Shown here piece by piece: positions 38,309 to 60,140 of a stretch of 64,000 nt of DNA (within the stretch, counting starts at the first letter, position 1; each line of letters opens with the position of its first letter). The stretch is from Candidatus Woesearchaeota archaeon (GTDB taxonomy: Archaea > Nanobdellota > Nanobdellia > Woesearchaeales > GW2011-AR15): positions 57,326-121,325 of the forward strand of contig JAVZBY010000003.1 in the NCBI GenBank assembly GCA_038874655.1, read 5' to 3'. The notes under the pieces were generated by a model. The model saw only the letters and a program-made list of their open reading frames with translations, searched no databases and had not been told where the DNA came from. A program made the translations under genes and the position numbers.

Positions 38309-38346
38309 ACACTGGACACTAGACATTTTTCTGTAAAATATATAAA
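38309..38346 (+). promoter_or_regulatory. ACACTGGACACTAGACATTTT motif plus TATA box
   Basis: 20/21 identical to 60103-60123; TATATAAA begins 30 nt after motif start. Confidence 0.7.
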
Positions 38347-38368
38347 TTACAATTATTTTTAAAAGTTA

Positions 38369-39049
38369 ATGCCTTATTCATTAAGTCCTTCAACCATAAA
38401 TCTTTTTTTAGATTGTCCTAAATGTTTTTGGCTTCAATTTAGAAAAAATATAAAAAGACCTGAGGGAATTTTTCCCTCATTACCTAGTGGAATAGATAGA
38501 ATATTAAAAGAACATTTTGATTCATATATTGAAAAAAATGACATTCCACCTGTTTTAAAAAAACACAATGTTGATGCAAAGCTATTTTCTAATTTAGAAT
38601 TATTAAATAAATGGAGAGATCAAAAAATTGGATTATCTTTTACTGATAATAAAGGCAATATTTTAAGAGGTGCTGTTGACAATCTATTAATAAAAGATAA
38701 TAAATTAATTGTTTTAGATTATAAAACCAGGGGTTATGAAGTAAAAAATGACACTCATGAACATTATAGAGTTCAATTAGATTTATACAATTTTCTTTTA
38801 AGAAAAAACGGATATGAAACAGAAAATTATTCTTATCTATTATTTTATCATCCTGATAAGATAGTAGAGAATGTTTTTTTATTCCATACACATTTAGTTA
38901 AAATTGATGTTAATATAAAAGAAGCTGAAAAAATATGGAAAGATGCACTTAAACTACTTGATGAATCTATGCCAAATTCATCTGAAAATTGTGAATATTG
39001 TAAATACAGAGAAACAAAAATTGACACAAATCTAAAAGATTATTATTAA
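38369..39049 (+). CDS. PD-(D/E)XK nuclease, RecB/Cas4-like (solo)
   Basis: LSPS...CPKCF, GAVD, LDYKT, QLDLY and CEYC motifs. Confidence 0.88.
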   Translation: MPYSLSPSTINLFLDCPKCFWLQFRKNIKRPEGIFPSLPSGIDRILKEHFDSYIEKNDIPPVLKKHNVDAKLFSNLELLNKWRDQKIGLSFTDNKGNILRGAVDNLLIKDNKLIVLDYKTRGYEVKNDTHEHYRVQLDLYNFLLRKNGYETENYSYLLFYHPDKIVENVFLFHTHLVKIDVNIKEAEKIWKDALKLLDESMPNSSENCEYCKYRETKIDTNLKDYY

Positions 39050-39102
39050 AATCATAAATTATATTAAAATTAAAAAAATAATTATTAATTTATACAAATT
39101 TT

Positions 39103-39861
39103 TTACTTTATACCAATTTTCTTTTTCAAAAAATCTAAACTAACTTCTTTATATTGCGCAATTTTTAAATTTAATTCCTTTAAATTTAAATCATTAATAG
39201 AAATTCTTTCTAATTTCAAAACTTTATTATTTATAGCCTCAAATATTTTTCTAACCTCTCTTTTTTTACCCTCATTTAATGTAATAAGCAATTTTCTTTC
39301 TGAAATCAATTTTATTTTAAATGGCTGTGTTTTATATTTCATATATTTTCCATCGATTTCAACATTTATAACTACACCTTGTTCTATTTCTTTGACTTTC
39401 TTTTCTGTTATTGGTTTTTCTAAAACAACATAATAAGTTTTTTTTATATTATACTTTGGATGTGCTATCTTAAAACCGAGTTTTCCATCATTAGTAATGA
39501 TTAACACCCCTGATGTATCTTCATCTAATCTGCCAACACAAAACAAAGTTCTTTTTATTTTTTCCTCTACATCCAACAAATCAAAAACACTTTTCTTTTT
39601 ATTATGTATATCTAAACTTGTTAATCTTGTAGATAAATAACCAACAGGTTTATTTATAACAAAATAATATTTTTTATCAATTATATTTAATATTTTACCT
39701 TTGTATTTAACAACCTTTTTTAATGGATTAAATCTATACATAGGATTAACAATTATCTGATCATCTACACTAACAAATCCATTTTTAATTTCATTTATTA
39801 ATTCTTGTTTATTTTTAAATACTCCTGTCCTAGAAAGAAATTGATGTAAATGAATTTTCAT
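39103..39861 (-). CDS. RsuA/RluB-family rRNA pseudouridine synthase with S4 domain
   Basis: NKPVGY, VGRLDEDTSG, K.Y.V and EGKKREVR motifs. Confidence 0.93.
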   Translation of the reverse strand: MKIHLHQFLSRTGVFKNKQELINEIKNGFVSVDDQIIVNPMYRFNPLKKVVKYKGKILNIIDKKYYFVINKPVGYLSTRLTSLDIHNKKKSVFDLLDVEEKIKRTLFCVGRLDEDTSGVLIITNDGKLGFKIAHPKYNIKKTYYVVLEKPITEKKVKEIEQGVVINVEIDGKYMKYKTQPFKIKLISERKLLITLNEGKKREVRKIFEAINNKVLKLERISINDLNLKELNLKIAQYKEVSLDFLKKKIGIK

Positions 39862-39913
39862 AAAAAAATAGAAAAAATATTAATTTAAAAAGCTTATATA
39901 AAAAGCGAAAAAA

Positions 39914-42301
39914 TCAATTTATCATAATATTATCAATATATTGTTCTATCTTTTTGTCATCCATTATTAAATTTAAAATAAATTTAAATTCACCTAAATT
40001 ATAACTTGGTTTATAATTTTTATTAATTCCTGGTTGATAGAATCCATTAGTTATTAAGAAATAATTGCTATTATCATTTTTTTCTGCTTTAATTAATAAA
40101 ACATCTCCTTTTTCCAATATAACATAATTTTTATCTTTATTTTTCAAATCATTACTAACATCTAAATTATTTAGATAGGCACTATAAGTTATTTCTTTTA
40201 CCTCTGGTTTTTCATTTGTATAATCAACTGCAATATAATCTATTGCATATATCCCTTGATAAAATTCAATTTTAATTTTATCTGTTTTTATATCTTCTAA
40301 ATCAATTATAAAATCTTTCTGTGAAAAAGTAATAAACTCATCAACAAAAACCCATTTATCATCAACATATGCATAAACCTTTCCATATCCATACTTTTTT
40401 AGTTTATTTTGAATTATATCATATATAATATCATAATTTAATAATTTATATATGGTTGGTAATATACCATTAATATCCTTTTCTGATAATTTATATTCAA
40501 AAACACCAATCTTATCAGTCATGCTTGCAGAAATAATTAATTTTGCATTTTCTTGTTTTTTTGGTAATGTTAGAATTAAATAATCAAATTTATCATCATT
40601 AAAATTATTATTATAATTTTGTTTAATTTTTTCTATATTTGTAGAATAAGCTTTTACATTATAATCTGTTGATTTTATTATTCTCAGTTTATCTACATCA
40701 ATAGAAGGTGAAAAATACCCTGCATCTTTTCTTGATATTATGTTTGTACAATCATCACCCTCTTTTGTCTCACATAAAACCTTTTCAGGATTTTTTATTG
40801 AAACAACATTTCCTTTATTTGAAATATAACTATTTTTATCAGACTTTAAAAGTTTTATATTATCTAAATAAGTTCTTTCATTTAAATGTTCTTTTATAAC
40901 AATTGATTCAAAATAATTATTCAAATTTGTATAATAATAATCATTATTTTCAGAATACTTTAAAACAAGCAAATCCTCTTCTAATATTTCATTTCCTTTA
41001 TCATCAATACTATAAACATAAGGACATGATCCAGTATTTGTTTTTTGATTGTTTTGTGTATTTTGATTAGTTTGTGGAGATTCACATTGGTAAATTGGTT
41101 GTAATTCACAAATACTTTGACAAATTTTTATTATTCCTGGACAATTACAATCATTTTCTTTTGCCCATATTCCATTTCCTGTCCATAGATTTTTTTCATT
41201 TATGTGCGGACAACATAGATTATATTGTGTTTTATAACATAAAGGATAGCATTTATTGTCTCCTGTACAATAACCCATTATACTTTCCCATGTTTTTTGA
41301 ACACAATAACCATTTGTTTTTTGATTAGGATCGTTTGGATTATAAATATAACTAGAGTCTCCTTCTTTTATAGATAAATCTAATTCTATTATACTTTCAC
41401 AACCATATTTTTCTGATAAAGTTAATTTATTTAAATTAAGGTCATATAAATCATTATTTCTTTTACAGCTTTCTGTTTCTTTATACCCAACTACTTTGCA
41501 ATTATTAGTATTGCCACAATTTTCTTGACATAGTTCATAGTCATATTTTGGTGAAAGACATTTATATAGATAAAACCCAACATTCATACATGTAAATCTT
41601 TGATTAATAATACAATCCTGTGGAAAATCTTTACTTATTTCATTACAATTTATTTGTTTTACATAACATTCATCATTCTCATTTCTAGGTTTTCCATTAA
41701 TATAACCACAATACGGGTCCATTTTATTCTGTGCAACACAATTAAAATAATTCACATCCCTATTACAACCCAAATCATAAAATCTACTTTCTTGATTTTT
41801 ATTATTAAAATCATTTTTTAATTCATTATAATAATCAAAAAAATTTTTCCAATTTTCATTTATATTAAAATTATCATTTAATTGATTAGCACCATTTGCA
41901 ATAAAGTTTAAAACTTTAAAAAATTCATCTCTAATTCCAAAAATTGTTAAAGCTCTATCTAAAAAAGACACTGTCCAGGATGTTGCATCCATTCCTGTTA
42001 TAAATTGACAAACCCCTTTAACATCGCCTGCAACAGAACAAGGTGGCATATTTGGATTTTGACTGCAATAATTTAATCCTTCCTTTGCTGTATTTAAAAC
42101 ACATCTACATGCTGAACTTAAACCTACTGCATTTATATTTTGACAATTCCTATTTAGGTTATAAATTCTTTGAGTTTCCACAGATAAAACATTGAAGCTT
42201 AATAAGGATAATATAAATATTGTAATTAATCCATAAAAAACCACTTTTCTTTTCACTTTAACCACCCATAAAAATAACTTTTTCACAACCTTCTTTAACA
42301 T
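39914..42301 (-). CDS. Cys-rich secreted protein (true start probably GTG at about 42256)
   Basis: Signal peptide after KRK; many Cys; C-terminal domain starting GSCPYVY. Confidence 0.65.
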   Translation of the reverse strand: MLKKVVKKLFLWVVKVKRKVVFYGLITIFILSLLSFNVLSVETQRIYNLNRNCQNINAVGLSSACRCVLNTAKEGLNYCSQNPNMPPCSVAGDVKGVCQFITGMDATSWTVSFLDRALTIFGIRDEFFKVLNFIANGANQLNDNFNINENWKNFFDYYNELKNDFNNKNQESRFYDLGCNRDVNYFNCVAQNKMDPYCGYINGKPRNENDECYVKQINCNEISKDFPQDCIINQRFTCMNVGFYLYKCLSPKYDYELCQENCGNTNNCKVVGYKETESCKRNNDLYDLNLNKLTLSEKYGCESIIELDLSIKEGDSSYIYNPNDPNQKTNGYCVQKTWESIMGYCTGDNKCYPLCYKTQYNLCCPHINEKNLWTGNGIWAKENDCNCPGIIKICQSICELQPIYQCESPQTNQNTQNNQKTNTGSCPYVYSIDDKGNEILEEDLLVLKYSENNDYYYTNLNNYFESIVIKEHLNERTYLDNIKLLKSDKNSYISNKGNVVSIKNPEKVLCETKEGDDCTNIISRKDAGYFSPSIDVDKLRIIKSTDYNVKAYSTNIEKIKQNYNNNFNDDKFDYLILTLPKKQENAKLIISASMTDKIGVFEYKLSEKDINGILPTIYKLLNYDIIYDIIQNKLKKYGYGKVYAYVDDKWVFVDEFITFSQKDFIIDLEDIKTDKIKIEFYQGIYAIDYIAVDYTNEKPEVKEITYSAYLNNLDVSNDLKNKDKNYVILEKGDVLLIKAEKNDNSNYFLITNGFYQPGINKNYKPSYNLGEFKFILNLIMDDKKIEQYIDNIMIN

Positions 42302-44195
42302 CTTTATTTAAAGGTGTACATATTTCACATAAAGAAGTTTCTTTTTCATCTGTCCAATCAACTAGTTGTGGTTTTCCATTAACTAAATCACATTTCTTTT
42401 TAATTTTACAAAAAGCACTTCCTAGCATTTCATAATTGCATAAGCACTCTTCTTCATTAACCATTTCATCTGAAGTCATATAAACACCATTACTTAATTT
42501 ACATTTTCTACAAGAAAACAAACCCTCTTCATAAACAAACTTAGCAGTTTCATTATCATTACAAACATTATTTATAGTGTAATTTTCAATTCCAATACCA
42601 TTAAATTTTATTCTGACACCACAATTAGCACAAAAACCTTCATCTGGTTCTTTAACATTTATAGAATTTATAATAACACCAAAATTATTATCCTTCATTA
42701 AATTATAATTTAAATTACATTTAGAACTATTCTCAAGACCATTATAAATAGAAACTATTTCAACCTCTTTATCTTCAAAAATACATGCATTTCCATTATC
42801 CATAAAATTCAATTGTAAAATAAAACCATCGTTATTTCCATCTTCAACTTTTCCACCTATACACTTTTTATTATTATAACCTATTATTTTTTTTCTAACC
42901 TTTTCATACAAACTAGAATCTTGTGGACAAATGCTTTGTTCTTTATAATTAAATATATAATATTCTTTAGCCCAGCATTCTTGCTGACTTAAAGGTTTAT
43001 CTAAGCATGATTCTGGAATTCCATCATTATTATTATCTGTACAACAGCAATAAACATTAACTAATGCTTCTTCTTCACAAAAATCTGTGCCATCAAAAAA
43101 ATATTTTTCTTTATCTAAAACCTGTTTATTTAGTTCTATTTTTGCATCATCATTTTTTAAAATTTTTAAAAACTCTTCTCTTGTAGGGCTAATTGTTTCA
43201 TCATCATTTATTAACCAAAATGGCTCTTTTTTATTTTCAATAACCTCATTTCTACAAAAACCTAAAATAAAATCATTATATCTTTTAACAAAATCTTCTT
43301 CTTTTTCATTATCTTTTTTAACTAAATTATAACCATATTTCTGTTGAAATAATGCTGGAACATCAATAATATTATTATTAGATTTTTCATTACAACCCAA
43401 AACAATAGCAAATTTTGTAAAATGATTAACTTTTGTTATTAATTTATTATCTTTTAATTCCGATTTTAATCCTTTCCAGATCTTAGATTTTTCATCCCAA
43501 TATGCTATTGTTGCTTGACTTAAATCAAAAAAGTCATTATTAGGCAAATCTAGCTCTAAATCCAAAGGTTGGTTAAAACTTAAACCATCTGGCAAGAATT
43601 CATAAACATTGCTTACAACAATATCATTTTTTAAATTATCAAAATTTTTATCAACAACCTTTACAGATAAGATATCATTTATTCCAGAATTTTTCTTTAT
43701 GAATAATCTAGCTTGTTTATCTGCTGAAAAAATAATTCCTTCATAATTATTATTTATTTTATAGCTGTTAGTTAAAGGAACATTAATAAAAAATGAATCA
43801 ATTTTATAATTTTCATTATCTTTAGTTATCTGAATATAATAATCAACATTTACAAAAAATGAATCTTCGCTAATTTCGATATTTATTTTAGGTTCTGAAT
43901 TTATTACATTATATCCTTTATTTATATAATATGAAAATAGGTCATTACCACAATTTCTAATTTTTGTATTCAAATATAAACTATTCTTATTATAATTTAA
44001 ACCATTTTCCTTAATAGATTCATATACTTTTGTTTCAACACAACTCTTTAATTCTGTTAAAATATTATTTTTAAAAGAAACTTCTGTTTTTTGAAAATAT
44101 GGTTTTCTATTAAAAGATAAAAATATAACTGCTGATATAATCACAATTAATCCAATAATAAAAAAAATTGTTATTTGTGTTTTATTTTTCATCAT
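42258..44195 (-). CDS. Secreted protein with class III signal peptide, paralog of 19379..22504
   Basis: KNKTQITIFFIIG N-terminus; shared W.E....W...S...HF(S/T) domain. Confidence 0.7.
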   Translation of the reverse strand: MMKNKTQITIFFIIGLIVIISAVIFLSFNRKPYFQKTEVSFKNNILTELKSCVETKVYESIKENGLNYNKNSLYLNTKIRNCGNDLFSYYINKGYNVINSEPKINIEISEDSFFVNVDYYIQITKDNENYKIDSFFINVPLTNSYKINNNYEGIIFSADKQARLFIKKNSGINDILSVKVVDKNFDNLKNDIVVSNVYEFLPDGLSFNQPLDLELDLPNNDFFDLSQATIAYWDEKSKIWKGLKSELKDNKLITKVNHFTKFAIVLGCNEKSNNNIIDVPALFQQKYGYNLVKKDNEKEEDFVKRYNDFILGFCRNEVIENKKEPFWLINDDETISPTREEFLKILKNDDAKIELNKQVLDKEKYFFDGTDFCEEEALVNVYCCCTDNNNDGIPESCLDKPLSQQECWAKEYYIFNYKEQSICPQDSSLYEKVRKKIIGYNNKKCIGGKVEDGNNDGFILQLNFMDNGNACIFEDKEVEIVSIYNGLENSSKCNLNYNLMKDNNFGVIINSINVKEPDEGFCANCGVRIKFNGIGIENYTINNVCNDNETAKFVYEEGLFSCRKCKLSNGVYMTSDEMVNEEECLCNYEMLGSAFCKIKKKCDLVNGKPQLVDWTDEKETSLCEICTPLNKDVKEGCEKVIFMGG

Positions 44196-44288
44196 CTACG
44201 ATAAATAAAAAAAAAACATTTAAAAATTTTATTGTTAATAAAAAAACAAAAATAAACTAACGAAAAAAAATATTATTGATAAAAAACA

Positions 44289-44879
44289 TTAAATTAAAAA
44301 AACCTCATTTTTAGAGAATCTATATTTTTTTCTTGGTTTATCATCTGCATAACCAATTGGCAATAAAACACTAGGCACTAAATTATCTGGTAATTTTAAA
44401 ACTTCTTTAAATTTATCTGGCATAAATCCTTCCATAGGACATGAATCAAAACCTAGTGATTTTGCTCCTAACATTGCAAAACCTAATGCAATATAAACTT
44501 GCCTTTGCGCCCAGCTTAATTTTTGTTCTTCATTCATTTGAGAAACAAAACCTCTCATCATATTAACATACTCTGTTGCATTAGGAAATGCCTTCGCTAA
44601 CTTATCTATGTTTTTTTCTATATCCTTATTTGCGCAAAAAACTAGTAAATGACTACAAGTTATTATTTGAGGTTGATTAAACCCAAATTGCAATAATTTT
44701 TCTTTTGTTTCTTTATCCTTTACAACCTTTATTACCCAAGGTTGTATATTAAAAGAAGATGGACTATATCTTATAATCTCAAACAATTCTTTTACTTTTG
44801 ATTCAGGAATCTTTTTTCCATTAAACTTTTTTGTTGCATATCTACTTAAAACAATATCTTTAAAATTCATATTAATCAC
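44289..44879 (-). CDS. Nitroreductase (NfsB-like)
   Basis: RYATKKF, PSSFNIQPW and DSCPMEGF motifs. Confidence 0.93.
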   Translation of the reverse strand: MINMNFKDIVLSRYATKKFNGKKIPESKVKELFEIIRYSPSSFNIQPWVIKVVKDKETKEKLLQFGFNQPQIITCSHLLVFCANKDIEKNIDKLAKAFPNATEYVNMMRGFVSQMNEEQKLSWAQRQVYIALGFAMLGAKSLGFDSCPMEGFMPDKFKEVLKLPDNLVPSVLLPIGYADDKPRKKYRFSKNEVFLI

Positions 44880-45007
44880 CTATTTTCTAAAATAATAGGT
44901 TATTTAAAAAAATTATATTTAACTAAATAAATTAAAAGTTTTCAAAAAAAATAACTTTTATAAAAATTTAAAAAAGAAAAAGTTTAAAATTAGTATAAAA
45001 AAGATTT

Positions 45008-45496
45008 TTATTCCAAATACCCTATAAATGTTTGCTCAAATAAAATTTCGTTTTTACTTGTTCCGTGTTTTTTTGTAAATCCTTCTTGAAATTGATCTGC
45101 TGTTCCACAATATTTTAATATTGCATCAACTCCACCTGGGTGTTTTCCTAAATACTGTGTTACATCATAAACCTTTTTATCATATGCAACCCAACAGTCA
45201 TTTCTTGAGTTATGCTTAGATAATTCACTTAAAGAAATTTTTTCATTATTCCTATTTTCTTGAATATTGTTTTCTTGATTATTTTCTTGAACATTATTGT
45301 TTTCTTGAATATCATTATTTTTATCATTATTATTTGTATATTCTATAATTTGTTGTTGGTTTTCTTCATTAGAATTTGTTTCTATTTTTTTAGCATCTTT
45401 CTCTTCATTTATAATTGATTTTTCTTGAACATTTACACATGCACTAACAAATAAAACTAATACTAAAAGTAAAAAATATTTATTCATTAACATCAC
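45008..45496 (-). CDS. Lipoprotein with cytochrome b5-like heme-binding domain
   Basis: Lipobox VSAC; KHNSRNDCW, VYDVT, HPGG and a second His. Confidence 0.88.
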   Translation of the reverse strand: MMLMNKYFLLLVLVLFVSACVNVQEKSIINEEKDAKKIETNSNEENQQQIIEYTNNNDKNNDIQENNNVQENNQENNIQENRNNEKISLSELSKHNSRNDCWVAYDKKVYDVTQYLGKHPGGVDAILKYCGTADQFQEGFTKKHGTSKNEILFEQTFIGYLE

Positions 45497-45544
45497 CCTA
45501 CAAAAAGAAAAAAAACAAGTATTATAAAACTTTTGTTTAATTAT

Positions 45545-47212
45545 TCATAATTCATCAAATAACTTAATTGCTTTATCTTTTATTACTAATAAGAAAGGTG
45601 CCAATTTTGGGCCTTTTTCTTTGCCTAATAAAACCAAATATGCAGCTTTAAATAATTCTTGTGGCTCAATATTTACCTCATCTCTTGCAATAGTATAAAA
45701 TTCATTAAATAAAGTTTGTTCTGTCCATTTGCCATGCTTTAATCTTTGAGCAATTAACTTTAAAGCTTGTTTTTGCTTATCTGTTAATTTTTCTTTATTC
45801 TCATCTAAAAGTTTCTCTTGCAATTTGAATTTATATTGTTCATCTGCAAATTCATTTACCCATTTTCTTGCAAACTTTAGCCTATCTTTTACATAATTAA
45901 TTTCTTCTTTTGTCGCATCTTCATATATATGGCCAGATTCCTTTAATTTTTCAATAATGAGATCATCATTTTCAAATAATTGAACCATAACAGATGCATG
46001 TATCAAAGATATTTGTGGTGGACATCTTTCTGGAATTTTTCCAACATGACTTAACTCATAAATTCTTTTTTGTTTTATTGCTTCTTTTTCATCTACTTTT
46101 TCTAAACCAAAATATATTCTTTCTGCTTTATCATATCTCTCATATAAAAGTATTAAATCATTAGTTCCATATGGATCAAAATCTATAACTGCATTAGGCC
46201 TAGTTCTTATTAACAAATATCTTAACATTTTAGCAGGTGCAAAATTAATGCTCTCTGCAAAACCAATTCCTCTTCCTTTAGAAGTGGACATCTTTTTTCC
46301 ACCTACTGTAAAGAACTCATAACCAGGACCTTCATTATAGCCATTGCTTGGATATGGCGGTGGGTAATTAAAAACATCAACAGATATTCTACAAGCAGCT
46401 GTTCTTGAACCACCTTTAGTAAAATGATCTTTTCCTGCTGTTTCAACTATAACTCCTTTAGATGGCCATTTTGCTGCCCATTCAACTTTCCATGGAAATT
46501 TACCATTTCCATTATAGGGGCTAATCCACCCTTTATAGCCACAGCCTGATGCCCAAGCCACAACACCATCTTTGCATTCAAAATAAAGCAATTCTTTTTT
46601 AGAATTCCATTCTAATGCAATTGTAGTTGCTATTTTTCCACAATTTGGACATCTAACATTAAAAGGTAATTTATTTGCTGCTGCAACTTCTTCACCATAT
46701 AAATCTGCAAAAATCTTTTGAATTTTTTCTGCATTATCCAATGCAATTTTTATTGTTCTATTAAAAGTGCCTTTTTCATATTCTTGGCCTGTGCTTTCTA
46801 ATTCTGCCTCAATTCCAAAATCTGGAAACAAATTTGTGCATTGTTTAAAATAATAGTCCCCATAACTCTCATATCCCTGCATTGGACTTGGAATATATCT
46901 AAATGGAATACCCATATATTTTTCATATTCTTTTTTATCCAAATAAGAGGGAATTTTATCCATAGGATCCATATCATCTGAACTTAATACAAATCTAGCA
47001 TTTTTTCCCTTGCTTCTTAATGCTTTTGCAATAGCATCATGGATAATCCAACCTCTTCCAGAACCAATATGAATTATTCCTGAAGGTGTTTTTTCATCAT
47101 AAACAAAATAGCCATTTTTATCTACTAATTTTTTCAACTCGGGATTATTTTCAACCCTTTCAATAACTTCATCTGCAATTTGGTCTGCCCAGTGTTTTAC
47201 ATCTTCGCTCAT
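45545..47212 (-). CDS. lysS: Lysine--tRNA ligase, class I
   Basis: HWAD, PSGIIHIG, GKDH, KMSTSKG and KGPKL motifs. Confidence 0.95.
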   Translation of the reverse strand: MSEDVKHWADQIADEVIERVENNPELKKLVDKNGYFVYDEKTPSGIIHIGSGRGWIIHDAIAKALRSKGKNARFVLSSDDMDPMDKIPSYLDKKEYEKYMGIPFRYIPSPMQGYESYGDYYFKQCTNLFPDFGIEAELESTGQEYEKGTFNRTIKIALDNAEKIQKIFADLYGEEVAAANKLPFNVRCPNCGKIATTIALEWNSKKELLYFECKDGVVAWASGCGYKGWISPYNGNGKFPWKVEWAAKWPSKGVIVETAGKDHFTKGGSRTAACRISVDVFNYPPPYPSNGYNEGPGYEFFTVGGKKMSTSKGRGIGFAESINFAPAKMLRYLLIRTRPNAVIDFDPYGTNDLILLYERYDKAERIYFGLEKVDEKEAIKQKRIYELSHVGKIPERCPPQISLIHASVMVQLFENDDLIIEKLKESGHIYEDATKEEINYVKDRLKFARKWVNEFADEQYKFKLQEKLLDENKEKLTDKQKQALKLIAQRLKHGKWTEQTLFNEFYTIARDEVNIEPQELFKAAYLVLLGKEKGPKLAPFLLVIKDKAIKLFDEL

Positions 47213-47292
47213 AAGAAAATGAAATAATGCAATAATTATAAATATAACTATTAGCTATTAAAAAATTTATATAAAAAGCAAAAAAACAAAAA

Positions 47293-47763
47293 ATGACACT
47301 AATCTTATCTTATGCAGTAAAACCCTCAAAAAAAATAAGAAATATATCTAACTTAGAGACTTTTATTGAAAATTACAAAAAAAGTATAGAAAGATTAAAA
47401 GATACTAATTTAGAAGTTATCCTTTCAGAAAATCATAATCAAAATATTGATACTATGTTCCTTTTTATTAATTATGCTCAAAAAAAAAGATTTTTTTGCA
47501 GATATCTTGGTTTGGGTTATACCATATATACTGAAAATGACTTAAAGCAAATATTAGACTTTTTAAAAATAAGAAATCCTTTGTGGAATCCTGAAATCAA
47601 ATTAGACATTAATATAAGAGAAATAGAAAATGATCTTAATAAAAAGTTAAAAAAACCTTTTTATTATAAAATTAATCAAGGCTCTATTTTAATCCCTAGC
47701 CAAACTGCATTAAACTTTTATTTAGATTATTTATATTATAGAAGTTTAGAAATTCCTCAATAA
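47293..47763 (+). CDS. Hypothetical protein
   Basis: 156-aa ORF filling an intergenic gap; no motif recognised. Confidence 0.5.
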   Translation: MTLILSYAVKPSKKIRNISNLETFIENYKKSIERLKDTNLEVILSENHNQNIDTMFLFINYAQKKRFFCRYLGLGYTIYTENDLKQILDFLKIRNPLWNPEIKLDINIREIENDLNKKLKKPFYYKINQGSILIPSQTALNFYLDYLYYRSLEIPQ

Positions 47764-47825
47764 ATTTAATTATAAGGTTATTTGAGAAAATGAATTTTAA
47801 AAAAAAATTAACTAAAAAGATTATT

Positions 47826-49010: not shown

Positions 49011-49094
49011 TTTCTATCACCTTTTTATTTTATATTTTTATTTTCTAATATTTTTATCTCGTTTTTCAATTCTTATTATTTATTTCTCATTTAA

Positions 49095-49919: not shown

Positions 49920-49959
49920 TTTTCCCTCCTAAAATAATAAAAAAAATTAAAAAACAAAC

Positions 49960-50655: not shown

Positions 50656-50686
50656 TTTTTATAATTTTTATATAAAGATTAAAATA

Positions 50687-51724: not shown

Positions 51725-52578
51725 TTTTTACCTCCTTGCTCCAAAACATAATCAACCATTAATTTTGGAATATTAACTCCTGTTGTTATAATTGAATTTC
51801 TAAACTCCATTGTATGATTTACTTCATTTACCATTAAACCATTTTTTGTCTCAAAAATATCTATTGCTAATAAACCACCTTTTTTATCTGTTATTGCATC
51901 TGCTGTTTTTTTACATAATTCATCAATCTCTTTTGTGATAGGACAATTTTCTGCTTTACCTCCTCTAGCTGTATTTGTAATCCAATGTTCAGAATTTCTA
52001 TAGATTGCTGCAATTGTTTTATTCCCTATTACAAAAGCTCTAATATCTCTCCCAGGTTTTTCAATATATTCTTGAATGTAAAAAATGGAATGATTATAGC
52101 CGCCTAATGTTGCTTTGTGTTCTATTATTGACTCTGCTTCTTCCCTTGATTTTACTTTAGCCATTAATCTACCCCATGAACCAATAACTGGTTTTAAAAC
52201 ACAAGGATATCCTAAAAAATCACATGCATTTAAAGCAGATTCTTCTGAAAAAGCCATAAAAACTTTAGGTGTTGGAATTTTATTATTTACTAAAATCTGA
52301 CTTGTAATATATTTATCACCACATCTCTCAGCAATAAAACTAGGATTAATTACTTTAACATTTTGTGCTTCAAATAATTTTGATATATATAATCCTCTGC
52401 TATAAGAAACGCTTCTTTCAAACAAAACATCAATATCATACTTTTTTTTTGATATGTCAAAAAATTCAATATTATCATCAATTATAATTAAATCAACATC
52501 TCTTTTTCTTAATTCATCTAACAAAAATTTTTCTTCTGCTCTTAATTTTGTCATCAAAAAACCTATTTTTAATTTCAT
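51721..52578 (-). CDS. lysX: Alpha-aminoadipate--LysW ligase (ATP-grasp)
   Basis: KPVIGSWGR, QEYI.KPGRDIR, WITNTARG and EVNHTMEFRNS motifs. Confidence 0.93.
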   Translation of the reverse strand: MKLKIGFLMTKLRAEEKFLLDELRKRDVDLIIIDDNIEFFDISKKKYDIDVLFERSVSYSRGLYISKLFEAQNVKVINPSFIAERCGDKYITSQILVNNKIPTPKVFMAFSEESALNACDFLGYPCVLKPVIGSWGRLMAKVKSREEAESIIEHKATLGGYNHSIFYIQEYIEKPGRDIRAFVIGNKTIAAIYRNSEHWITNTARGGKAENCPITKEIDELCKKTADAITDKKGGLLAIDIFETKNGLMVNEVNHTMEFRNSIITTGVNIPKLMVDYVLEQGGKK

Positions 52579-52613
52579 GATTTCACCATTTTTTTATCTT
52601 TGTTTTTTTATCA

Positions 52614-53648
52614 TTATTTTAAAAAATTAAGGACTTTTTCTCTTATTTTCTCAGCAACCTCTTTTGTTGTTTTATTGCCACCTAAATCATAAGTAGTATT
52701 ATTTTCCTTTATTGTTTCATAAACTGCTTTTTCAATTATTTCTGCATAATAAGTTTCATTAAGATATTCCAACATCATTTTTGCAGATAGGATTGCTGCA
52801 ATAGGATTTGCTTTATTCAAACCTGCATTTTTTGGATTACTACCATGTACTGGCTCAAATATCGCATTATTTTTTCCTATATTACCTGAATATGCAATTC
52901 CTAAGCCACCTACTAGCATAGAAGCCTCATCACTTAAGATATCACCAAATAAATTTGTTGTTATAATTATTTCAAATTGGCTTGGATTCTTTATTAATTG
53001 CATTGCACAAGCATCAACATGCATTTCATCCATTTGTATATTAAATTGATTGTATTTTGATTTATATTCATCATAAATCTCATAAGCAATTTTTCTAAAT
53101 AACCCACATGTCTCTCTCATTACATTTGCTTTATGCACTATAGTTATCTTTTTTCTATTTTGTTTTACTGCTAATTCAAAACCAAATCTTATAATTTTTT
53201 CACTTGCTTCTCTTGTAATAACTCTTTCTGTTATTGCTTTATTTCCATTATCTTCAATTCTTTCAATCCCAGAATAAAGATCTTCTGTATTTTCTCGAAC
53301 AATGACTAAATCAACATCTTGTCTAGAAATAGGATGCGGAATTGATCTACATGGTCTTACATTTGCATATAAATCAAATAATTTTCTTAATTTTATTATT
53401 GCAGAACTATAATTTTTAATATCTGGCGGTGTTGTTACTGCACCAAATAATGTTGCATTTGTATTTTTTATATTTTCAATTGTATCTTCAGGTAAATTAG
53501 TTCCTTTTTTTAAATATGTTTCATAACCAATCTCAGAAAAAACAAAATCAAATTTTAAAGGTAATGCATTTAAAACTAATAAAGCACTATCAATTACTTC
53601 TTTTCCAATTCCATCTCCAGGCATAACATTTATTTTGTAGGTTTTCAT
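52614..53648 (-). CDS. Homoisocitrate dehydrogenase (ICDH/IPMDH family)
   Basis: GDGIG.EV, RENTEDLY, HKANV, NLFGDILSD and EPVHGS motifs; lysine operon context. Confidence 0.85.
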   Translation of the reverse strand: MKTYKINVMPGDGIGKEVIDSALLVLNALPLKFDFVFSEIGYETYLKKGTNLPEDTIENIKNTNATLFGAVTTPPDIKNYSSAIIKLRKLFDLYANVRPCRSIPHPISRQDVDLVIVRENTEDLYSGIERIEDNGNKAITERVITREASEKIIRFGFELAVKQNRKKITIVHKANVMRETCGLFRKIAYEIYDEYKSKYNQFNIQMDEMHVDACAMQLIKNPSQFEIIITTNLFGDILSDEASMLVGGLGIAYSGNIGKNNAIFEPVHGSNPKNAGLNKANPIAAILSAKMMLEYLNETYYAEIIEKAVYETIKENNTTYDLGGNKTTKEVAEKIREKVLNFLK

Positions 53649-53680
53649 TTTTCTGTTTTGATATTTCTAAAATATTTCAA

Positions 53681-54193
53681 TTAATTATTTAGTTCTTCTA
53701 AATCATGCTCTTTTAAGTAATTAATAATGCCACCTGAATTTCTTATTTTTAAGATAAATTCTGGCATCTTCTTTGCTTCTATAACTATATTTTTTGTTAT
53801 GTTTTTTATTATTCCTTTTTCTAAATCAACTTCTAAAATGTCATTTTCATCTATTTTATCAGTATCACATTCCAAAATTGGCAATCCAATGTTTATAGCA
53901 TTTCTATAAAAAATTCTAGAAAACGATTTTGCTAAAACAACAACATTTTTCCCTTTTAATGCGACAGCAGCATGCTCTCTTGATGAGCCGCATCCAAAGT
54001 TATAACCAGCAACAACAAAATCATTTTCATTTGCATTTTTAAAATCAGGCCTTACTTCACAAAAAACATTTTTTGCTAATTCCTTAGGGTCAATTGTAAT
54101 ATTATATCTGGCAGGTATAATCTCATCTGTATTCATATTATCTGAAAATTTCCATACTTTTCCTTTAATTAAATTATTTTGAGTTTTATCCAT
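53681..54193 (-). CDS. Homoaconitase small subunit (LeuD/HacB family)
   Basis: NTDEIIP, NFGCGSSREHA and IFYRNAIN.G motifs. Confidence 0.88.
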   Translation of the reverse strand: MDKTQNNLIKGKVWKFSDNMNTDEIIPARYNITIDPKELAKNVFCEVRPDFKNANENDFVVAGYNFGCGSSREHAAVALKGKNVVVLAKSFSRIFYRNAINIGLPILECDTDKIDENDILEVDLEKGIIKNITKNIVIEAKKMPEFILKIRNSGGIINYLKEHDLEELNN

Positions 54194-54210
54194 TTTTTCA
54201 CCTATGTTAA

Positions 54211-55488
54211 TTAATTCAAATACTTTCTAGGATCTGTAATTTTGCCTTCTATTGCTGTTGCAGCTGCAGAAGCAGGACTTCCTAAATAAATTTCTGCTTC
54301 TGGGCTTCCCATTCTTCCTATAAAATTTCTGTTCATTGTTGTAAATGCTCTTTCTTTTGGTGCTAACAAACCACCATGTCTGCCAATACATGCACCACAT
54401 CCTGGATTTGTTATTGTGCAACCAGCATCAATGAAAATTTTTATTAAACCATTTTTCAATGCTTTTTCATATATAGTATTGCTAGCTGGTGTTATTATAG
54501 TTCTAGTAAATTTACTCACCTTTCTTCCTTTTAAAATAGAAGCTGCTATTTCTAAATCTTCATATCTCGCATTTGTACATGTTCCTATAAAAACTTCATC
54601 TATTTCTAAACCTTCAACCTCTTTTAACTTTTTTACATTATCAACATCTGGATGACAAGAAACCATCGGCTCTATTTCATTCACATTAATATCTATAATC
54701 TTCTCATAAATAGGATTCTTTGGATGAATCTCAATCAAATCTTTTTCACTTATAGTATCTTTAAATCTCTCTAATAATTTAGTTTCATTTTTTAAAAAGT
54801 CAATTGTTTTTTTATCAGAACTTATTAAACCACATTTTGCTCCAATTTCTGTACTCATATTAGAAAAAACGATTCTTTCATGCATTGGCAAATTTTTAAT
54901 AAATTCTCCAGAAAACTCAACGCTTTTATATGTTGCTCCATCCATTCCTAATAATCCAGCAATATAAATCATAACATCTTTTGCATAAACACCTTTTTTT
55001 AAATTACCTGTCATATTAATCAAAATTGTTTCTGGAACCTTAAACCATAATTTTCCTGTAATCCAAGCAACTGCTATTTCTGTTGAGCCATAACCAGATG
55101 AAAAACATCCTAATGCACCATAAGTATTAGAATGTGAATCTGCGCCAATCACAATATTTCCAGGAATAATAAATCCCTCTTCAATCATTACTTGATGGCA
55201 AACACCTTTTTTAAAAAAATTCTCTATTTTCTGCTCTTTAATAAAATCAGTAATCTTTTTTTGTGCTTCTGCTGCTAATAAATTAGGTGCTGGATATGCA
55301 TGATCAAAATGAATAACAATCTTATTTTTATCTTTAAGTGGTTTCCCGACTTCTCTAAAAGATTTTATTGCTAATGGCGTAGTATTATCATGGCTCATTA
55401 TAAAATCAACATCAGCAATAACTAAATCTCCTGCTTTTACTTCTTTATTTAATTTTCTTGAAAAAATTTCCTCTACTAATGTTCCCAT
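54211..55488 (-). CDS. Homoaconitase large subunit (LeuC/HacA family)
   Basis: DH, GVCHQ, DSH, GTCTNAR, CGAC and NRNF.GRMG motifs. Confidence 0.9.
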   Translation of the reverse strand: MGTLVEEIFSRKLNKEVKAGDLVIADVDFIMSHDNTTPLAIKSFREVGKPLKDKNKIVIHFDHAYPAPNLLAAEAQKKITDFIKEQKIENFFKKGVCHQVMIEEGFIIPGNIVIGADSHSNTYGALGCFSSGYGSTEIAVAWITGKLWFKVPETILINMTGNLKKGVYAKDVMIYIAGLLGMDGATYKSVEFSGEFIKNLPMHERIVFSNMSTEIGAKCGLISSDKKTIDFLKNETKLLERFKDTISEKDLIEIHPKNPIYEKIIDINVNEIEPMVSCHPDVDNVKKLKEVEGLEIDEVFIGTCTNARYEDLEIAASILKGRKVSKFTRTIITPASNTIYEKALKNGLIKIFIDAGCTITNPGCGACIGRHGGLLAPKERAFTTMNRNFIGRMGSPEAEIYLGSPASAAATAIEGKITDPRKYLN

Positions 55489-56888
55489 TAAAATTCACCT
55501 TTATTCTCATTAAGATAACCATTATGTTTTTTCAATACTATTTTTGTATTGGTTTGTTTTATTCCTTTTACTAATCTTAATTCTTCAATTAAGTTGTTTA
55601 ATTCTGCTGTACTATTTACTTTAACATATATAGAAATATCATGCTCTCCTGTTATTTCAAAAACACTTTTTACGTGTTTAAAATTTTTTAAAATTCTAAC
55701 AACTGAGCTAGTATAAACTTCTGATTCAACAGAAATTAAAATTAAAGCATTTATTCCTTCTGGAATTATATTTGTATTTTTTCCAATAACCTTTTCTGCA
55801 ATTTCTATAATATCTATATCATGTAATATCTTTCTTTCATCTCCTACTTTCTTTATTTCATAAACAATTTTCTCTAATTGCTCATCATTAACCTGAATAT
55901 CATATTCACTTAATTTTGATTTTACAGCTGCTTTTCCAGTGTATTTATCAACAATAATTTTTCTTTCTCTACCTATTAAACTTGGTTCAAAAGGCTCATA
56001 TGTTTTAGGATTTTTCAAAACACCATTAGTATGAGAAAATGCATTTATTCCTGTAATTGGCTTATTAGGTGCAATAAAAAAACCTGATATTTTTTCTAAA
56101 TAATTACTAGCTTCAATCAAATATTTTTCATTAAACTTATTTAATCCATAAAGAACTTTAAAAGTCATAATAACTTCTGCTAAATCAGGAATTCCTGTTC
56201 TTTCACCCATACCATTTATTGTGGTATGTATGCAATCTGCTCCTGCTTCAATTGCCATTATTGCATTTGCTAATGCTAAACCAAAATCATTATGACAATG
56301 CACATCTAAACCACATGGCAATAATTTTTCTTTTAATCTTTTTACATTTTGATAAAAAACATTTGGCAGCATTATTCCTAGTGTATCTGCATAACTTATT
56401 CTGTCTGCTCCTGCTTTTATTGCTGTATTACATGCTTCAACCAAAAAATCAAAATCAGTTCTTGTGGCATCTTCTGGTGTAAATCTTACTTTTAAACCAA
56501 GAGATTTTGCATATGAAACATTTTCTTTTATTATTTCCAAAGCTTCTCTTTCAGTTTTCTTTACTTTTGTTTCTAAATGTATTTTTGAAGTAGGATAAAA
56601 AACAACAATTCTTTTTGCTCCTGTTTTCTTTGCATTATCAATATTTTGTTTTATTGCTAATGAATGTGCAACAATCTCTGCCTTTAAATTCAATTTTACA
56701 ATTTCTGAAATTGCCTCAAATATTTTTGGTGAAACACTAGGATCACCAGCCTCAATCATATCAACTCCAATTTTATCTAAATATTTTGCAATCTCTATTT
56801 TCTCATCGACACTAAAATTTACATAGGGTGTTTGTTCTCCTTCTCTTAATGTTGTATCCAATATTTTTACATCTATTTGATTTATCAT
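55488..56888 (-). CDS. Homocitrate synthase with C-terminal Lrp/AsnC (RAM) regulatory domain
   Basis: DTTLREGEQ, HCHND and GERTG motifs; tail FEITGEHDI...TNTKIVL typical of RAM. Confidence 0.88.
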   Translation of the reverse strand: MINQIDVKILDTTLREGEQTPYVNFSVDEKIEIAKYLDKIGVDMIEAGDPSVSPKIFEAISEIVKLNLKAEIVAHSLAIKQNIDNAKKTGAKRIVVFYPTSKIHLETKVKKTEREALEIIKENVSYAKSLGLKVRFTPEDATRTDFDFLVEACNTAIKAGADRISYADTLGIMLPNVFYQNVKRLKEKLLPCGLDVHCHNDFGLALANAIMAIEAGADCIHTTINGMGERTGIPDLAEVIMTFKVLYGLNKFNEKYLIEASNYLEKISGFFIAPNKPITGINAFSHTNGVLKNPKTYEPFEPSLIGRERKIIVDKYTGKAAVKSKLSEYDIQVNDEQLEKIVYEIKKVGDERKILHDIDIIEIAEKVIGKNTNIIPEGINALILISVESEVYTSSVVRILKNFKHVKSVFEITGEHDISIYVKVNSTAELNNLIEELRLVKGIKQTNTKIVLKKHNGYLNENKGEF

Positions 56889-56933
56889 TTTTTAAAAAAA
56901 TTTTTTGAAAATTTATTGAATTACTTTAGTTAT

Positions 56934-57095
56934 TTATTGACCCCAGTCTTCTGCTTCTTGAGGAGCCAATTCTAAAACAACAGGATTTAATTTCCTAACC
57001 TCTAATTCAGAACCACAATCTTGGCAATTTAAAATTTCGCCAATTTCAACATTTTCAGCTTTAATTTCTGCACCACATTCTGGACATTCTGCCAT
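56934..57095 (-). CDS. lysW: LysW amino-group carrier protein ending in Gln (not in ORF track)
   Basis: MAECPECGAE...CQDCGSELEV...LAPQEAEDWGQ*, 53 aa; GGAGG SD upstream. Confidence 0.95.
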   Translation of the reverse strand: MAECPECGAEIKAENVEIGEILNCQDCGSELEVRKLNPVVLELAPQEAEDWGQ

Positions 57096-57312
57096 ATTTT
57101 TTCCCCTCCATATAATATTTGATTTATCTCAATTAATTTTACAATTTTAAAAAAATAAAAAATAAATTAATTTGAATATTAGATTTCAAAAATCAAAAAA
57201 TAATAAAAACATAATGTTAAAATATTAAAAAAAATAAAATAAAAAAATTATTATTATAACTTTATGTTAAAATTTTATTTAATTAGATTATACGCTATTT
57301 TACTACACTATA

Positions 57313-57951
57313 CTATTTTATAATATTAAGAAAAAAAGGCGCTATAAAATAGAAAACCCATGCATTAAAAATAATGTGTGTAATAAAGAAAATAAAACTT
57401 TTATAGATATTACTACCTGTTAAGATATATAATGGTAAAATAATTACATCATAAATTATTGTCATTAATATTCCTAAATAAAATAAAGGCAAGTCAAAAA
57501 AAGGCACTATTAATGAAATTAACGGCAAAGTAAAAATTGAAATAAAAGAAGTTGGTTTAAAACTTCCAGAAAGAATATAGCCTCCAATTAAAGAAGCAAA
57601 AGCAACAAACACACCATATTTTCTTCCATATGCTAATGTTATTAAAACAACAGCCATCATACATAATTCAAAACCAATAAAGCTCATAAATCTAAATTTT
57701 TGAGGCAATAAAGACAAAATAGCCAAAAAAATTAAAAAAAAAGTCCAAAAAATCTTCTTAAAATAATCAGAAAGAATAAACTTGATTATAGAAAAGATTA
57801 TTAAAGATAATATTAAAGATAATATAAATAATTTTTTATCTGAAAAAATTTTTTTAAATAAATAATTAGAAAACAACAAAAACTTATAAACTAAATTTTC
57901 CTTTGTTTTTTCTCTTACTTTGGATTGTATTTTTTTTATATAGTGAATCAT
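57313..57951 (-). CDS. Multi-pass membrane protein (possibly ECF S-component-like)
   Basis: About six hydrophobic segments; LAYG...G pattern. Confidence 0.45.
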   Translation of the reverse strand: MIHYIKKIQSKVREKTKENLVYKFLLFSNYLFKKIFSDKKLFILSLILSLIIFSIIKFILSDYFKKIFWTFFLIFLAILSLLPQKFRFMSFIGFELCMMAVVLITLAYGRKYGVFVAFASLIGGYILSGSFKPTSFISIFTLPLISLIVPFFDLPLFYLGILMTIIYDVIILPLYILTGSNIYKSFIFFITHIIFNAWVFYFIAPFFLNIIK

Positions 57952-57960
57952 TCTATTATT

Positions 57961-58173
57961 TTACTTACTTTCTTTAGGTCTAAATAATATGCCTGCTAAC
58001 AAATTTAGCAAAAATGCATCTATGATAGTTAATCTAGGTAAACCAAATAATCTTGGCATTAAGTAATTCCATATAAGCCAAACTGGCAAAGCATATAATA
58101 ATGCTCCTAATAAGATAAAAAAAGCTGTTATTAATAAAACACCAAAAGTATTAGGAATAAATTTTATTTGCAT
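57961..58173 (-). CDS. Small membrane protein
   Basis: 70 aa, hydrophobic, WNYLMP.LFGLP motif; GGTGA SD. Confidence 0.6.
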   Translation of the reverse strand: MQIKFIPNTFGVLLITAFFILLGALLYALPVWLIWNYLMPRLFGLPRLTIIDAFLLNLLAGILFRPKESK

Positions 58174-58207
58174 ATTATCACCTTTTTTTAATTCATACTC
58201 TAAAATT

Positions 58208-60022
58208 TTATTTTTTAAAATTTTCTTTCTTAATAAAATCTAATTTTATATGCAATTCTTTTAATTGTTTTTCATCAACCTCACTAGGACTACCTACCAT
58301 AAGTTCTTCTGCATTTTTGTTTTTTGGAAATGCAGTTATTTCTCTAATGTTTGGCTCTCCTCTTAAAATCATAACTAATCTTTCAATACCAGGAGCAAAA
58401 CCACAATGTGGTGGTGCGCCATATTTAAATGCTTTAATCATATGCCCAAATTTCTTATCTACTACTTCTTTTCCATAACCAGCTATTTCAAAAGCTTTAT
58501 ACATAATTTCAGGAACATTATTTCTAACTGCTCCTGAGCTTAATTCAACTCCATTACAAACAATATCATATTGATAAGCTAAAATATCCAAAGGATCTTT
58601 TGTTTTTAATGCTTCTAAACCTCCTTGAGGCATTGAAAAAGGATTATGACAAAAATCAATTTTTCCTTCTTCTTCATTAAATTCATACATTGGAAAATCA
58701 ACTACCCATAACCAAGCCAAAATATTTTCATCAATCAAATTTAATCTTTTTCCTAATTCTAATCTAACTTGAGATAATGACTTACATACAATTTTTTCTT
58801 TTTCTGCTGCAAAAAATATTATATCATTTTCTTCTGCTTTCATCTCATTTAATATTTTACTTGTTATTTCATCACCTAAATATTTTGTAATAGGTGATTT
58901 TATTTCTCCATCTTTTAAAGTAATATAAGCCAATCCTTTTAAACCATGACTTTTTGCTAATTCTGTTAGTTCCTCAATATCCTTTCTTGTAAAAAGATTT
59001 GCTGCTTTTTTTGCATTTATTGCTCTAACAACACCTTTGTTTTTAATTACATTAGAAAAAACCTCAAAATTTGTATTTTTTACTATTTGTGTTATGTCTT
59101 GTATTTCTAATCCAAACCTTATATCAGGTTTATCTGTTCCATATTTTAACATTACATCTTTATACTTTAATCTTGGAAATGGTTGATGTAATATCTTTTT
59201 ATTAGTGAATTTTTTTGTTAATTCTATAAATAAAGGTTCCATTAAATCAAAAAACTCATCTTGAGTTAAAAAACTAGTTTCACAATCTAATTGATAAAAT
59301 TCACCTGGGCTTCTATCTGCTCTTGCATCTTCATCTCTCATACATGGAGCAATTTGAAAATATTTATCAAAACCAGCTACCATTAATAATTGCTTATATT
59401 GCTGTGGCGCCTGTGGTAAAGCATAAAACTTTCCTGGATGTAATCTTGACGGAACTAAAAAATCCCTTGCTCCTTCTGGAGAGCTTACAGTTAATATTGG
59501 TGTTTCTATTTCTGTAAAACCATGTGAAAACATCCAATCTCTTATAAATTTAACCACATGACTTCTAAAAATAATATTTTCTTGTAATCTTTTTCTTCTT
59601 AAATCTAAAAATCTGTATTTTAATCTTATTTCTTCAGAAACATCGATTCTATCATCAATCTCAAAAGGAGGTGTATCTGCTTTATTTAATATTTCAACAT
59701 TATCAACTAAAACTTCTATTTCTCCTGTTTCTAAATTTGGATTTTCTAAACCTTCACCTCTATATCTTACTTTTCCTTTCGCATGAATCACAAACTCTCT
59801 TCTTAAAGTTTCTGCAATTTTATGACTATCTTTATCATGACTAGGATCAAAAACTAATTGTGTAATTCCATATCTATCTCTTAAATCAATGAATATCTTT
59901 CCACCATGATCTCTATAAGAATTTACCCAACCTGACAATTTGACTTCTTTTCCAATATCTGATTTTCTTAATTCTCCACAAGTATGTGTTCTTAATTTTG
60001 TATTCATAAACAACAACCTCAC
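58208..60022 (-). CDS. aspS: Aspartate--tRNA ligase, bacterial-type with GAD insert (start probably 60007)
   Basis: RTHTCGEL, RDHGG, EGARDFLVPSR, QAPQQYKQLLM and GAPPH motifs. Confidence 0.95.
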   Translation of the reverse strand: MRLLFMNTKLRTHTCGELRKSDIGKEVKLSGWVNSYRDHGGKIFIDLRDRYGITQLVFDPSHDKDSHKIAETLRREFVIHAKGKVRYRGEGLENPNLETGEIEVLVDNVEILNKADTPPFEIDDRIDVSEEIRLKYRFLDLRRKRLQENIIFRSHVVKFIRDWMFSHGFTEIETPILTVSSPEGARDFLVPSRLHPGKFYALPQAPQQYKQLLMVAGFDKYFQIAPCMRDEDARADRSPGEFYQLDCETSFLTQDEFFDLMEPLFIELTKKFTNKKILHQPFPRLKYKDVMLKYGTDKPDIRFGLEIQDITQIVKNTNFEVFSNVIKNKGVVRAINAKKAANLFTRKDIEELTELAKSHGLKGLAYITLKDGEIKSPITKYLGDEITSKILNEMKAEENDIIFFAAEKEKIVCKSLSQVRLELGKRLNLIDENILAWLWVVDFPMYEFNEEEGKIDFCHNPFSMPQGGLEALKTKDPLDILAYQYDIVCNGVELSSGAVRNNVPEIMYKAFEIAGYGKEVVDKKFGHMIKAFKYGAPPHCGFAPGIERLVMILRGEPNIREITAFPKNKNAEELMVGSPSEVDEKQLKELHIKLDFIKKENFKK

Positions 60023-60102
60023 AACCTAAATTGATAAATAATAAATTGAAATACAAAAAGTTTTAAAATATGTGAGAATATATAAAGGTTTTTTTGGAAC
60101 AT

Positions 60103-60140
60103 ACACTGGACACTGGACATTTTCAAGTAAGATTTATAAA
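60103..60140 (+). promoter_or_regulatory. ACACTGGACACTGGACATTTT motif plus TATA box of the cas operon
   Basis: Tandem 7-mer; TTTATAAA at 60133-60140; matches 38309-38329. Confidence 0.7.

Follow-up and report, generated by a model that had tools for sequence, protein, structure and literature searches.

The window analysed here is a 64,000-nucleotide stretch of a Candidatus Woesearchaeota genome (assembly GCA_038874655.1, contig JAVZBY010000003.1, positions 57,326 to 121,325; the genome, of 1.26 Mb and 25% GC, is labelled G000), in which a solo PD-(D/E)XK nuclease and a type I-B cas operon are preceded by the same promoter element. The unit of this element is an asymmetric 9-bp box, CACTRGACA, which ends 15 nt before a TWTAWA sequence, occurs in a single orientation upstream of the TFB-recognition element (BRE) and is very probably the site of a regulator. 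On balance we favour the view that one trans factor, an Orc1/Cdc6 paralogue, acts on the box to switch a recombination and repair regulon in Woesearchaeales and some other Nanobdellota families. That this second Orc1/Cdc6 paralogue is the best regulator candidate for the box regulon is new, and the weight of the finding rests on this testable assignment and not on the link to cas: a candidate protein, a 9-bp site and two specificity-swap mutations are named here, and they can be tested without culturing the organism. If the assignment is true, it gives a function to a paralogue present in 144 of 151 Woesearchaeales genomes, makes unannotated genes behind the box readable as repair candidates and means that an acquired CRISPR-Cas operon has been wired into a host damage switch.

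The first-pass annotation had described a 21-nt sequence shared by the two promoters, and this observation is exact and not a product of chance. The features concerned are the following.

38309..38329, + strand: 21-nt match, copy 1, with overlapping boxes at 38310-38318 and (TATA-proximal) 38317-38325, plus flanks
38339..38346, + strand: TATA box of the solo nuclease promoter, TATATAAA, spaced as at other sites
38369..39049, + strand: solo PD-(D/E)XK nuclease, 226 aa, Cas4/AddB-like (Pfam PDDEXK_1, 7e-15)
60103..60123, + strand: 21-nt match, copy 2, with boxes at 60104-60112 and (TATA-proximal) 60111-60119
60133..60140, + strand: TATA box of the cas operon promoter, TTTATAAA

The two 21-mers lie where they were first placed and are identical at 20 of 21 bases, with one base differing; in both promoters the TATA box starts 30 nt past the motif start (38339 and 60133) and the ATGs, at 38369 and 60166, follow 30 and 33 nt past the TATA start. 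None of 100 dinucleotide shuffles gave any match at three or fewer mismatches, in line with the earlier judgement that a chance match was unlikely. The 21-mer has only two copies in the G000 genome, the next best sequence having five mismatches; and in the 100-nt upstream windows of 1067 G000 open reading frames (ORFs) these are the sole pair with a 21-mer match of at least 20/21 and at least seven G+C. The full 21-mer was nevertheless rejected as the unit, as it has two copies genome-wide whereas the 9-mer accounts for all sites. A 7-bp direct repeat upstream of BRE had also been proposed; the fixed position upstream of BRE and TATA stands, but the unit is the 9-bp box and the 7-bp tandem is one arrangement of it. 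Among 90 sampled sites, 57 have no extra upstream copy, 17 have one at 7 bp spacing and nine at 9 bp, and the other three G000 sites show spacings of 9, 9 and 15 bp.

G000 contains 13 exact 9-mers, 10 of them intergenic and arranged as five pairs, and the combination of box, 15-nt gap and TWTAWA gives five exact sites; a further 13 have two mismatches, and no site has one. The genome scan proposed earlier as a check returned five promoters with fixed TATA spacing and repair genes among the targets: those of the solo nuclease, the cas operon, a 97-aa gene before radA, a repair radical-SAM protein and two tiny ORFs. The radical-SAM protein has a helix-hairpin-helix part (HhH), and a homologue matches TIGR03916 under the cut-off. 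When all species genomes were scanned for the tandem form, at least 122 loci were found; of 80 titles among the matches listed, 60 are Woesearchaeota, Nanoarchaeota or Nanoarchaeia, 19 Methanosarcinales, one an archaeon and none bacterial, the 19 Methanosarcinales titles probably being mislabelled, to judge from shared downstream proteins. The 15-nt gap to TWTAWA is found in 116 of 124 tandem-box matches among those listed. Across 151 Woesearchaeales genomes there are 544 sites in 123 genomes, against one site in the reversed control (this tally and those of the Cdc6 paralogue and a 160-aa gene considered below include the unpublished G119 and G138). A slightly relaxed pattern is matched in 68 of 80 further genomes (this tally includes the unpublished G181, G197 and G220, and another further-genome tally G222 and G224; these unpublished genomes enter no other result). 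Outside Woesearchaeales, some members of two families have a clear box, and counts are otherwise close to background.

The 21-nt identity might also come from the copying of a promoter cassette or micro-element, with no common regulator, and the likeness of sites within a genome does extend into their flanks: about 29 nt are common to the C4 and C5 sites of G000, and six of seven sites in G479 are identical over 30 nt, so that copying probably helps promoters to spread. Across some 130 families, however, the 9-mer, the distance and the TATA box alone are conserved, and orthologous genes retain the box while their flanks diverge; as a full explanation copying is largely refuted and very improbable. 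The sequence of the 15-nt spacer varies between sites. Extended spacer sequence common to the sites of one genome was seen in G479, G238 and G084, which suggests promoter copying or extra lineage-specific contacts.

The genes behind the box were classified from 90 of the 544 sites (30 returned as loci plus 60 from 150 listed, so that many-site genomes are favoured), of which 77 have an ORF (the 13 without were dropped); 35 of these ORFs start 50-56 nt from the box. On the basis of Pfam matches for 45 of the 77 plus BLAST clusters, 26 belong to repair, recombination or replication, 13 are the small radA-linked gene, 24 are of mobile or defence type (including seven LAGLIDADG, four Bro-N and four methylases), five are helix-turn-helix (HTH) proteins and nine are other. 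The repair class comprises Hef (6), Hel308 (3), XerA (3), Hjc (2), Cas4-like (2) and the Cdc6 paralogue itself (2), together with Lhr, EndoIV, OGG, Nre, RadC, MCM, RNase H-like and spore photoproduct lyase (SPL)-like radical-SAM proteins; the tandem-form set contributes radA, DinB and Tag glycosylase. The earlier suggestion of a defence or DNA-damage regulon including the solo nuclease therefore survives in its repair and defence gene set, nuclease included, but CRISPR is not its centre, with a cas box in one of eight genomes.

The small gene before radA has no match in Pfam, PHROGs, PDB or any named Atlas cluster; PC4/SSB-like is a tentative label for it, and radA may be co-transcribed with it. 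Its leader of about 100 nt contains hairpin-like GC stretches (G000:C5:1310-1430, - strand; L375-L387, L554-L557) and a conserved purine-rich word ahead of the Shine-Dalgarno sequence, a candidate RNA element. In another arrangement one or two short ORFs (about 25-45 aa) come after the box promoter (G000:C4:81094-81520; L280, L284 and L292, past the Cdc6 paralogue).

Among the 26 genomes that lack an exact site, the small radA-linked gene is present in 19, most with a variant box at the same place. The variants extend genome-wide: CAYTTGCCA in G108, CACYCGCCA in G083, CACARGACA in G044, G154 and G234, and CACTRGCCA in G020 and G143. All sites of a genome shift together, as would be expected for one trans factor. 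Orc1/Cdc6 proteins were examined as candidates because the core of the box matches that of elements resembling the origin recognition box (ORB) ahead of canonical cdc6 genes in relatives (CCACTAGAAA in G210 and CCACTGGAAC, on the reverse strand, in G124). G000 has two Orc1/Cdc6 genes and the candidate is the second, of 355 aa (G000:C2:164577-165641). The paralogue is annotated merely as AAA ATPase or Cdc6; it has Walker A and B motifs, a Cdc6 lid, a predicted winged helix and an Orc1 fold, and appears to be a non-initiator unlinked to an origin. The fold predicted from 25 sequences has a pLDDT (predicted local distance difference test) of 86, against 46 for a single-sequence prediction, and its top matches are the Orc1-DNA complexes 2v1u and 2qby. 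Residues 314 and 317 fall within a predicted helix (313-325), of which the conserved stretch 313-319 aligns with the TQRR helix of S. solfataricus Orc1-1, presumably the recognition helix of that protein. In 10 of 30 loci a box also follows the paralogue at a distance of no more than 1.5 kb.

Box changes were compared with the 355 columns of the paralogue. In the discovery set (eight genomes with changed box positions 4-5 versus 40; six rows with an uncertain box or truncated sequence were dropped) column 297 ranked first (8/8 versus 1/40) and 317 second (7/8 versus 1/40), while in held-out genomes (eight variant and 26 canonical) 317 ranked first of 355 (8/8 versus 5/26) and 297 seventh. Paralogues cut by contig ends (three), two unpublished genomes and G184, which gave no box evidence, were left out of the comparisons made after the discovery set. 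In two families of other orders 317 splits 5/5 versus 0/3, and well supported branches force two changes. Column 314 came out on top for box position 7 (6/7 versus 3/63), four of the seven having been seen beforehand. The p values of these comparisons ignore kinship. Four zero-count genomes with Q317 carry TG at box positions 4-5; G185 (T317), scored as an exception, has five CACAAGACA sites besides canonical ones, and G214 has one CACAAGACA site. The five genomes without the paralogue gave 14 relaxed box matches versus 15 in the control, i.e. no box above control, and G240, from the same family, fits. This co-variation makes it likely that the second Orc1/Cdc6 paralogue reads the box.

Several observations weigh against this assignment and against the regulon drawn from it. 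Four box-bearing assemblies (G029, G099, G124 and G212; 50-190 contigs) yielded no copy of the paralogue, and in other orders it is present in 59 of 80 genomes, many without a detectable box (most with 0-1 sites). Individual genomes depart from the pattern: G058 (H317) and G178 (S317) retain canonical boxes, G083 has Q317 yet C at box position 5, G419 and G389 have K/R317 with one or two canonical sites, G093 pairs K314 with C7, and three genomes pair R314 with A7. The coupling of 297 fails outside Woesearchaeales (rank 126), and in the test on other orders 317 shares its rank with two unrelated columns. The discovery genomes were grouped after the helix had been seen to vary, several of the variant genomes held out come from the same families as discovery genomes, and the 48-taxon quick tree is poorly resolved, giving five changes with a single origin possible; co-variation was run on the paralogue and on the 160-aa winged-helix-turn-helix (wHTH) protein. 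A box in the paralogue's own promoter occurs in four of 30 loci, G000 not among them. The repair enrichment was judged by inspection, without a classified background gene set, and no box precedes hef, radC or two RNase H-like genes in G000, so regulon membership turns over.

The same regulon might instead be read by another factor, such as a 160-aa winged-helix-like protein (G000:C2:208596-209078) or canonical Orc1/Cdc6, which we consider unlikely. The 160-aa gene occurs in 138 of 151 genomes, and 9/28 of its loci carry a box upstream, compared with 4/30 for the paralogue. Against it, no co-variation was seen for its product (best p 0.012 of 156 columns), which is intact in the box-less G059, G160 and G132 and was not found in 12 box-positive genomes. 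Canonical Cdc6 is the only Cdc6 found in G029, G099 and G124, where boxes are present; it is, however, also present in all five box-less, paralogue-less genomes. That the comparison covered three reader candidates also counts in favour of another reader. A second wHTH family is limited to 45 of 151 genomes and is missing from G000. The two winged-helix candidates were ranked below the paralogue. Upstream of the second wHTH family (L338-L365) the word TGTCGG plus an AT-rich tail recurs just upstream of TATA in many promoters, a possible autoregulatory site of that family.

In the mechanism that we propose, the paralogue would bind the asymmetric box as a monomer via the recognition helix of its winged-helix domain, with residue 317 reading box positions 4-5 and residue 314 reading position 7. 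In this code K314R would favour CACTRGCCA (GCCA boxes), Q317H would favour CACTTGACA (CACTT boxes) and Q317T would admit A at position 4. Additional upstream copies would raise occupancy, and the bound paralogue, just upstream of BRE, would stimulate TBP/TFB assembly after damage. From the position of the box and by analogy with Sulfolobus Orc1-2 the reader probably acts as an activator, and damage induction of the regulon is, on the same grounds, probable. The solo nuclease would be an inherited regulon member and the type I-B cas operon would have been brought under the switch recently in the G000 lineage. Alternatively, the paralogue may bind the box while the signal is the cell-cycle or host-attachment state, as in a replication or S-phase regulon, or it may repress. 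Cells of these archaea are host-dependent, the targets include MCM, Hel308, methylases and the paralogue itself, and the proposed reader belongs to an initiator family; but damage-specific enzymes (DinB, Tag, OGG, EndoIV, SPL-like, Nre, Hef and Hjc) plus SOS-type integrases and mobile nucleases dominate the targets, and a site upstream of BRE is the usual activator position, according to passages of PMC5817253. We regard this alternative as improbable.

The solo nuclease has conserved D-x(n)-DYK and Q-xxx-Y motifs and two CxxC-type pairs, and its transcript is probably leaderless. Its earlier description as Cas4-like holds for the PD-(D/E)XK active site (D, DyK, Q...Y), which is kept in 20 homologues, but the protein is not Cas4 proper: it scores 46.3 bits with TIGR00372 against a cut-off of 65, which the operon's own cas4 passes at 69.5 bits. 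The Cas4 cluster motif consists of one N-terminal Cys plus a C-terminal CxxC-x5-C, whereas the nuclease consensus has two Cys near each end and lacks the third C-terminal Cys. The box lies upstream of 12 of the 20 homologues (12/13 in the same family and 0/7 outside it), with CACTRGACA alone kept, 51-56 nt before the ATG, a distribution that points to inheritance of the site within the nuclease's family. A 58-aa Cys-rich ORF (38108-38284, + strand) with its own TATA-like sequence upstream and no Pfam match ends 25 nt before the box.

The cas genes behind the second promoter are as follows.

60166..60894, + strand: cas6, first gene of the type I-B operon (Pfam Cas_Cas6_C; TIGR01877 over cut-off)
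60896..62353, + strand: putative large subunit, cas8b-like by position (no family match)
62350..62694, + strand: 114-aa ORF, small-subunit-like by position (no family match)
62693..63745, + strand: cas7 (Cst2/DevR; TIGR02585 over cut-off)
63738..64000, + strand: cas5, start only, the window end being reached

Beyond the window cas5 is followed by cas3, cas4, cas1, cas2 and an array of 15 repeats, and the distal cas genes appear to be co-transcribed. The type I-B assignment is borne out by cas6, cas7, cas3, cas4, cas1b and cas2, all over cut-off, with cas5b partial and under cut-off and cas8b assigned by position; short N runs in the assembly break cas5 and cas1 (L001:4323-4340 and about 8190). 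A cas6 gene was found in eight of 301 genomes searched, and only that of G000 has the box upstream (1/8; one of the eight is cut by a contig end and one is partly masked). No box precedes cas6 in seven metagenomic relatives (three are partial matches, one with 49 nt upstream), the aspS loci of five congeners have neither cas genes nor box (0/5), and the CRISPR leader of G000 has no box. A CRISPR-centred regulon was rejected on these counts. As the box is found at cas6 only in G000 and at the nuclease in nearly all loci of the family, the cas operon is a lineage-specific recruit and the nuclease site inherited. A 12-nt word adjoining the box (60094-60105) is also present about 45 nt upstream of cas6 in a 54%-identical, box-less metagenomic relative (L400/L401), by which the box may have been grafted into the operon's native promoter; the word is not in nine other cas6 loci and may be chance.

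No DNA-damage regulon or regulator in DPANN or Nanobdellota, and nothing on the present element, was found in the literature searched, which did not cover subscription papers. The terms DNA damage, regulon, ORB and Orc1-2 do not occur in the main text of a 2026 Nanobdellota preprint, although its supplements might bear on novelty. PMC12890983 provides context only. Sun et al. 2018 (PMC6061795) did not settle the question of damage-gene regulation by Orc1/Cdc6 paralogues beyond Sulfolobales. The closest parallel is the Orc1-2 regulon of Sulfolobales, in which, according to sections of PMC6061795, PMC9738581 and PMC5817253, DNA-damage genes carry a DNA-damage-responsive element (DDRE; ANTTTC); as PMC6061795 relates in part, this asymmetric element lies upstream of BRE and is bound by Sulfolobus Orc1-2, which activates damage genes. 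The present system likewise has a short asymmetric element upstream of BRE/TATA in repair-gene promoters and a proposed reader that is an Orc1/Cdc6 with AAA+ and winged-helix domains, separate from the presumed initiator. It differs in its box, CACTRGACA with lineage variants, and in its targets (the radA operon, hef, hjc, glycosylases and integrases rather than ups, ced and tfb3); autoregulation, to judge from a box in 4/30 loci, would be weak, and the system is defined here by comparative genomics. Orc1/Cdc6 proteins form two ancient clusters, as outlined in part of PMC3914693, and in a profile comparison the paralogue scores closer to Orc1-1 (152 bits) than to A. pernix ORC2 (41) or P. aerophilum Cdc6 (1fnn; 51); its best NCBIfam match, PRK00411.1-2, is under cut-off. 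Since the motif is not that of the DDRE and these scores do not decide between the clusters, we do not file the system as a member of the Orc1-2 regulon.

In Halobacterium, sections of PMC2556686 describe an orphan motif, TTTCACTTTCA, upstream of TATA at radA and other UV-induced genes. Like the box, this motif lies about 50 nt before the start codon and upstream of TATA and has an internal direct repeat, and the CACTT of CACTTGMCA variants is common to it; it differs in being T-rich, with a 5-bp repeat unit, and in having been shown by UV transcriptomics. In S. islandicus, Csa3a couples CRISPR adaptation and repair genes (context from parts of PMC7515695). Here too cas and repair genes fall under one proposed factor, but the direction is reversed, a repair switch having captured a cas operon, and the site is not palindromic, the leader has no box and the cas locus contains no csa3-like ORF. 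The box shares the core CCACTRGA with the ORB-like elements before relatives' canonical cdc6, ORB being bound by Orc1-1 (2v1u, 2qby); unlike ORB, none of the five G000 sites has a dyad core or G-string, and they lie in promoters and not at an origin. In G000 an ORB-like element with a G-string lies between trmB and canonical cdc6 (L210:1365-1390, G000:C1) and is likely the replication origin.

The bacterial SOS regulon, governed by the LexA box, has a recombination and repair core plus captured integrases, mobile nucleases and toxin-antitoxin genes. The box regulon resembles it in having such a core with captured integrases, mobile nucleases and toxin-antitoxin genes; but the LexA box is a palindromic operator overlapping the core promoter, whereas the present site is asymmetric and upstream of it, and LexA is a self-cleaving repressor, whereas the proposed reader is an AAA+ winged-helix activator. 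We tentatively raise a broader and rather doubtful proposal, that a non-initiator Orc1/Cdc6 was the ancestral archaeal SOS-like switch: the Nanobdellota box, Sulfolobus ACTTTC and Halobacterium TTTCACTTTCA would be ORB-derived sites of one ancient activator, whose 314/317 residue-to-base code the Nanobdellota lineages would expose, and which would here have taken over a CRISPR-Cas operon as well.

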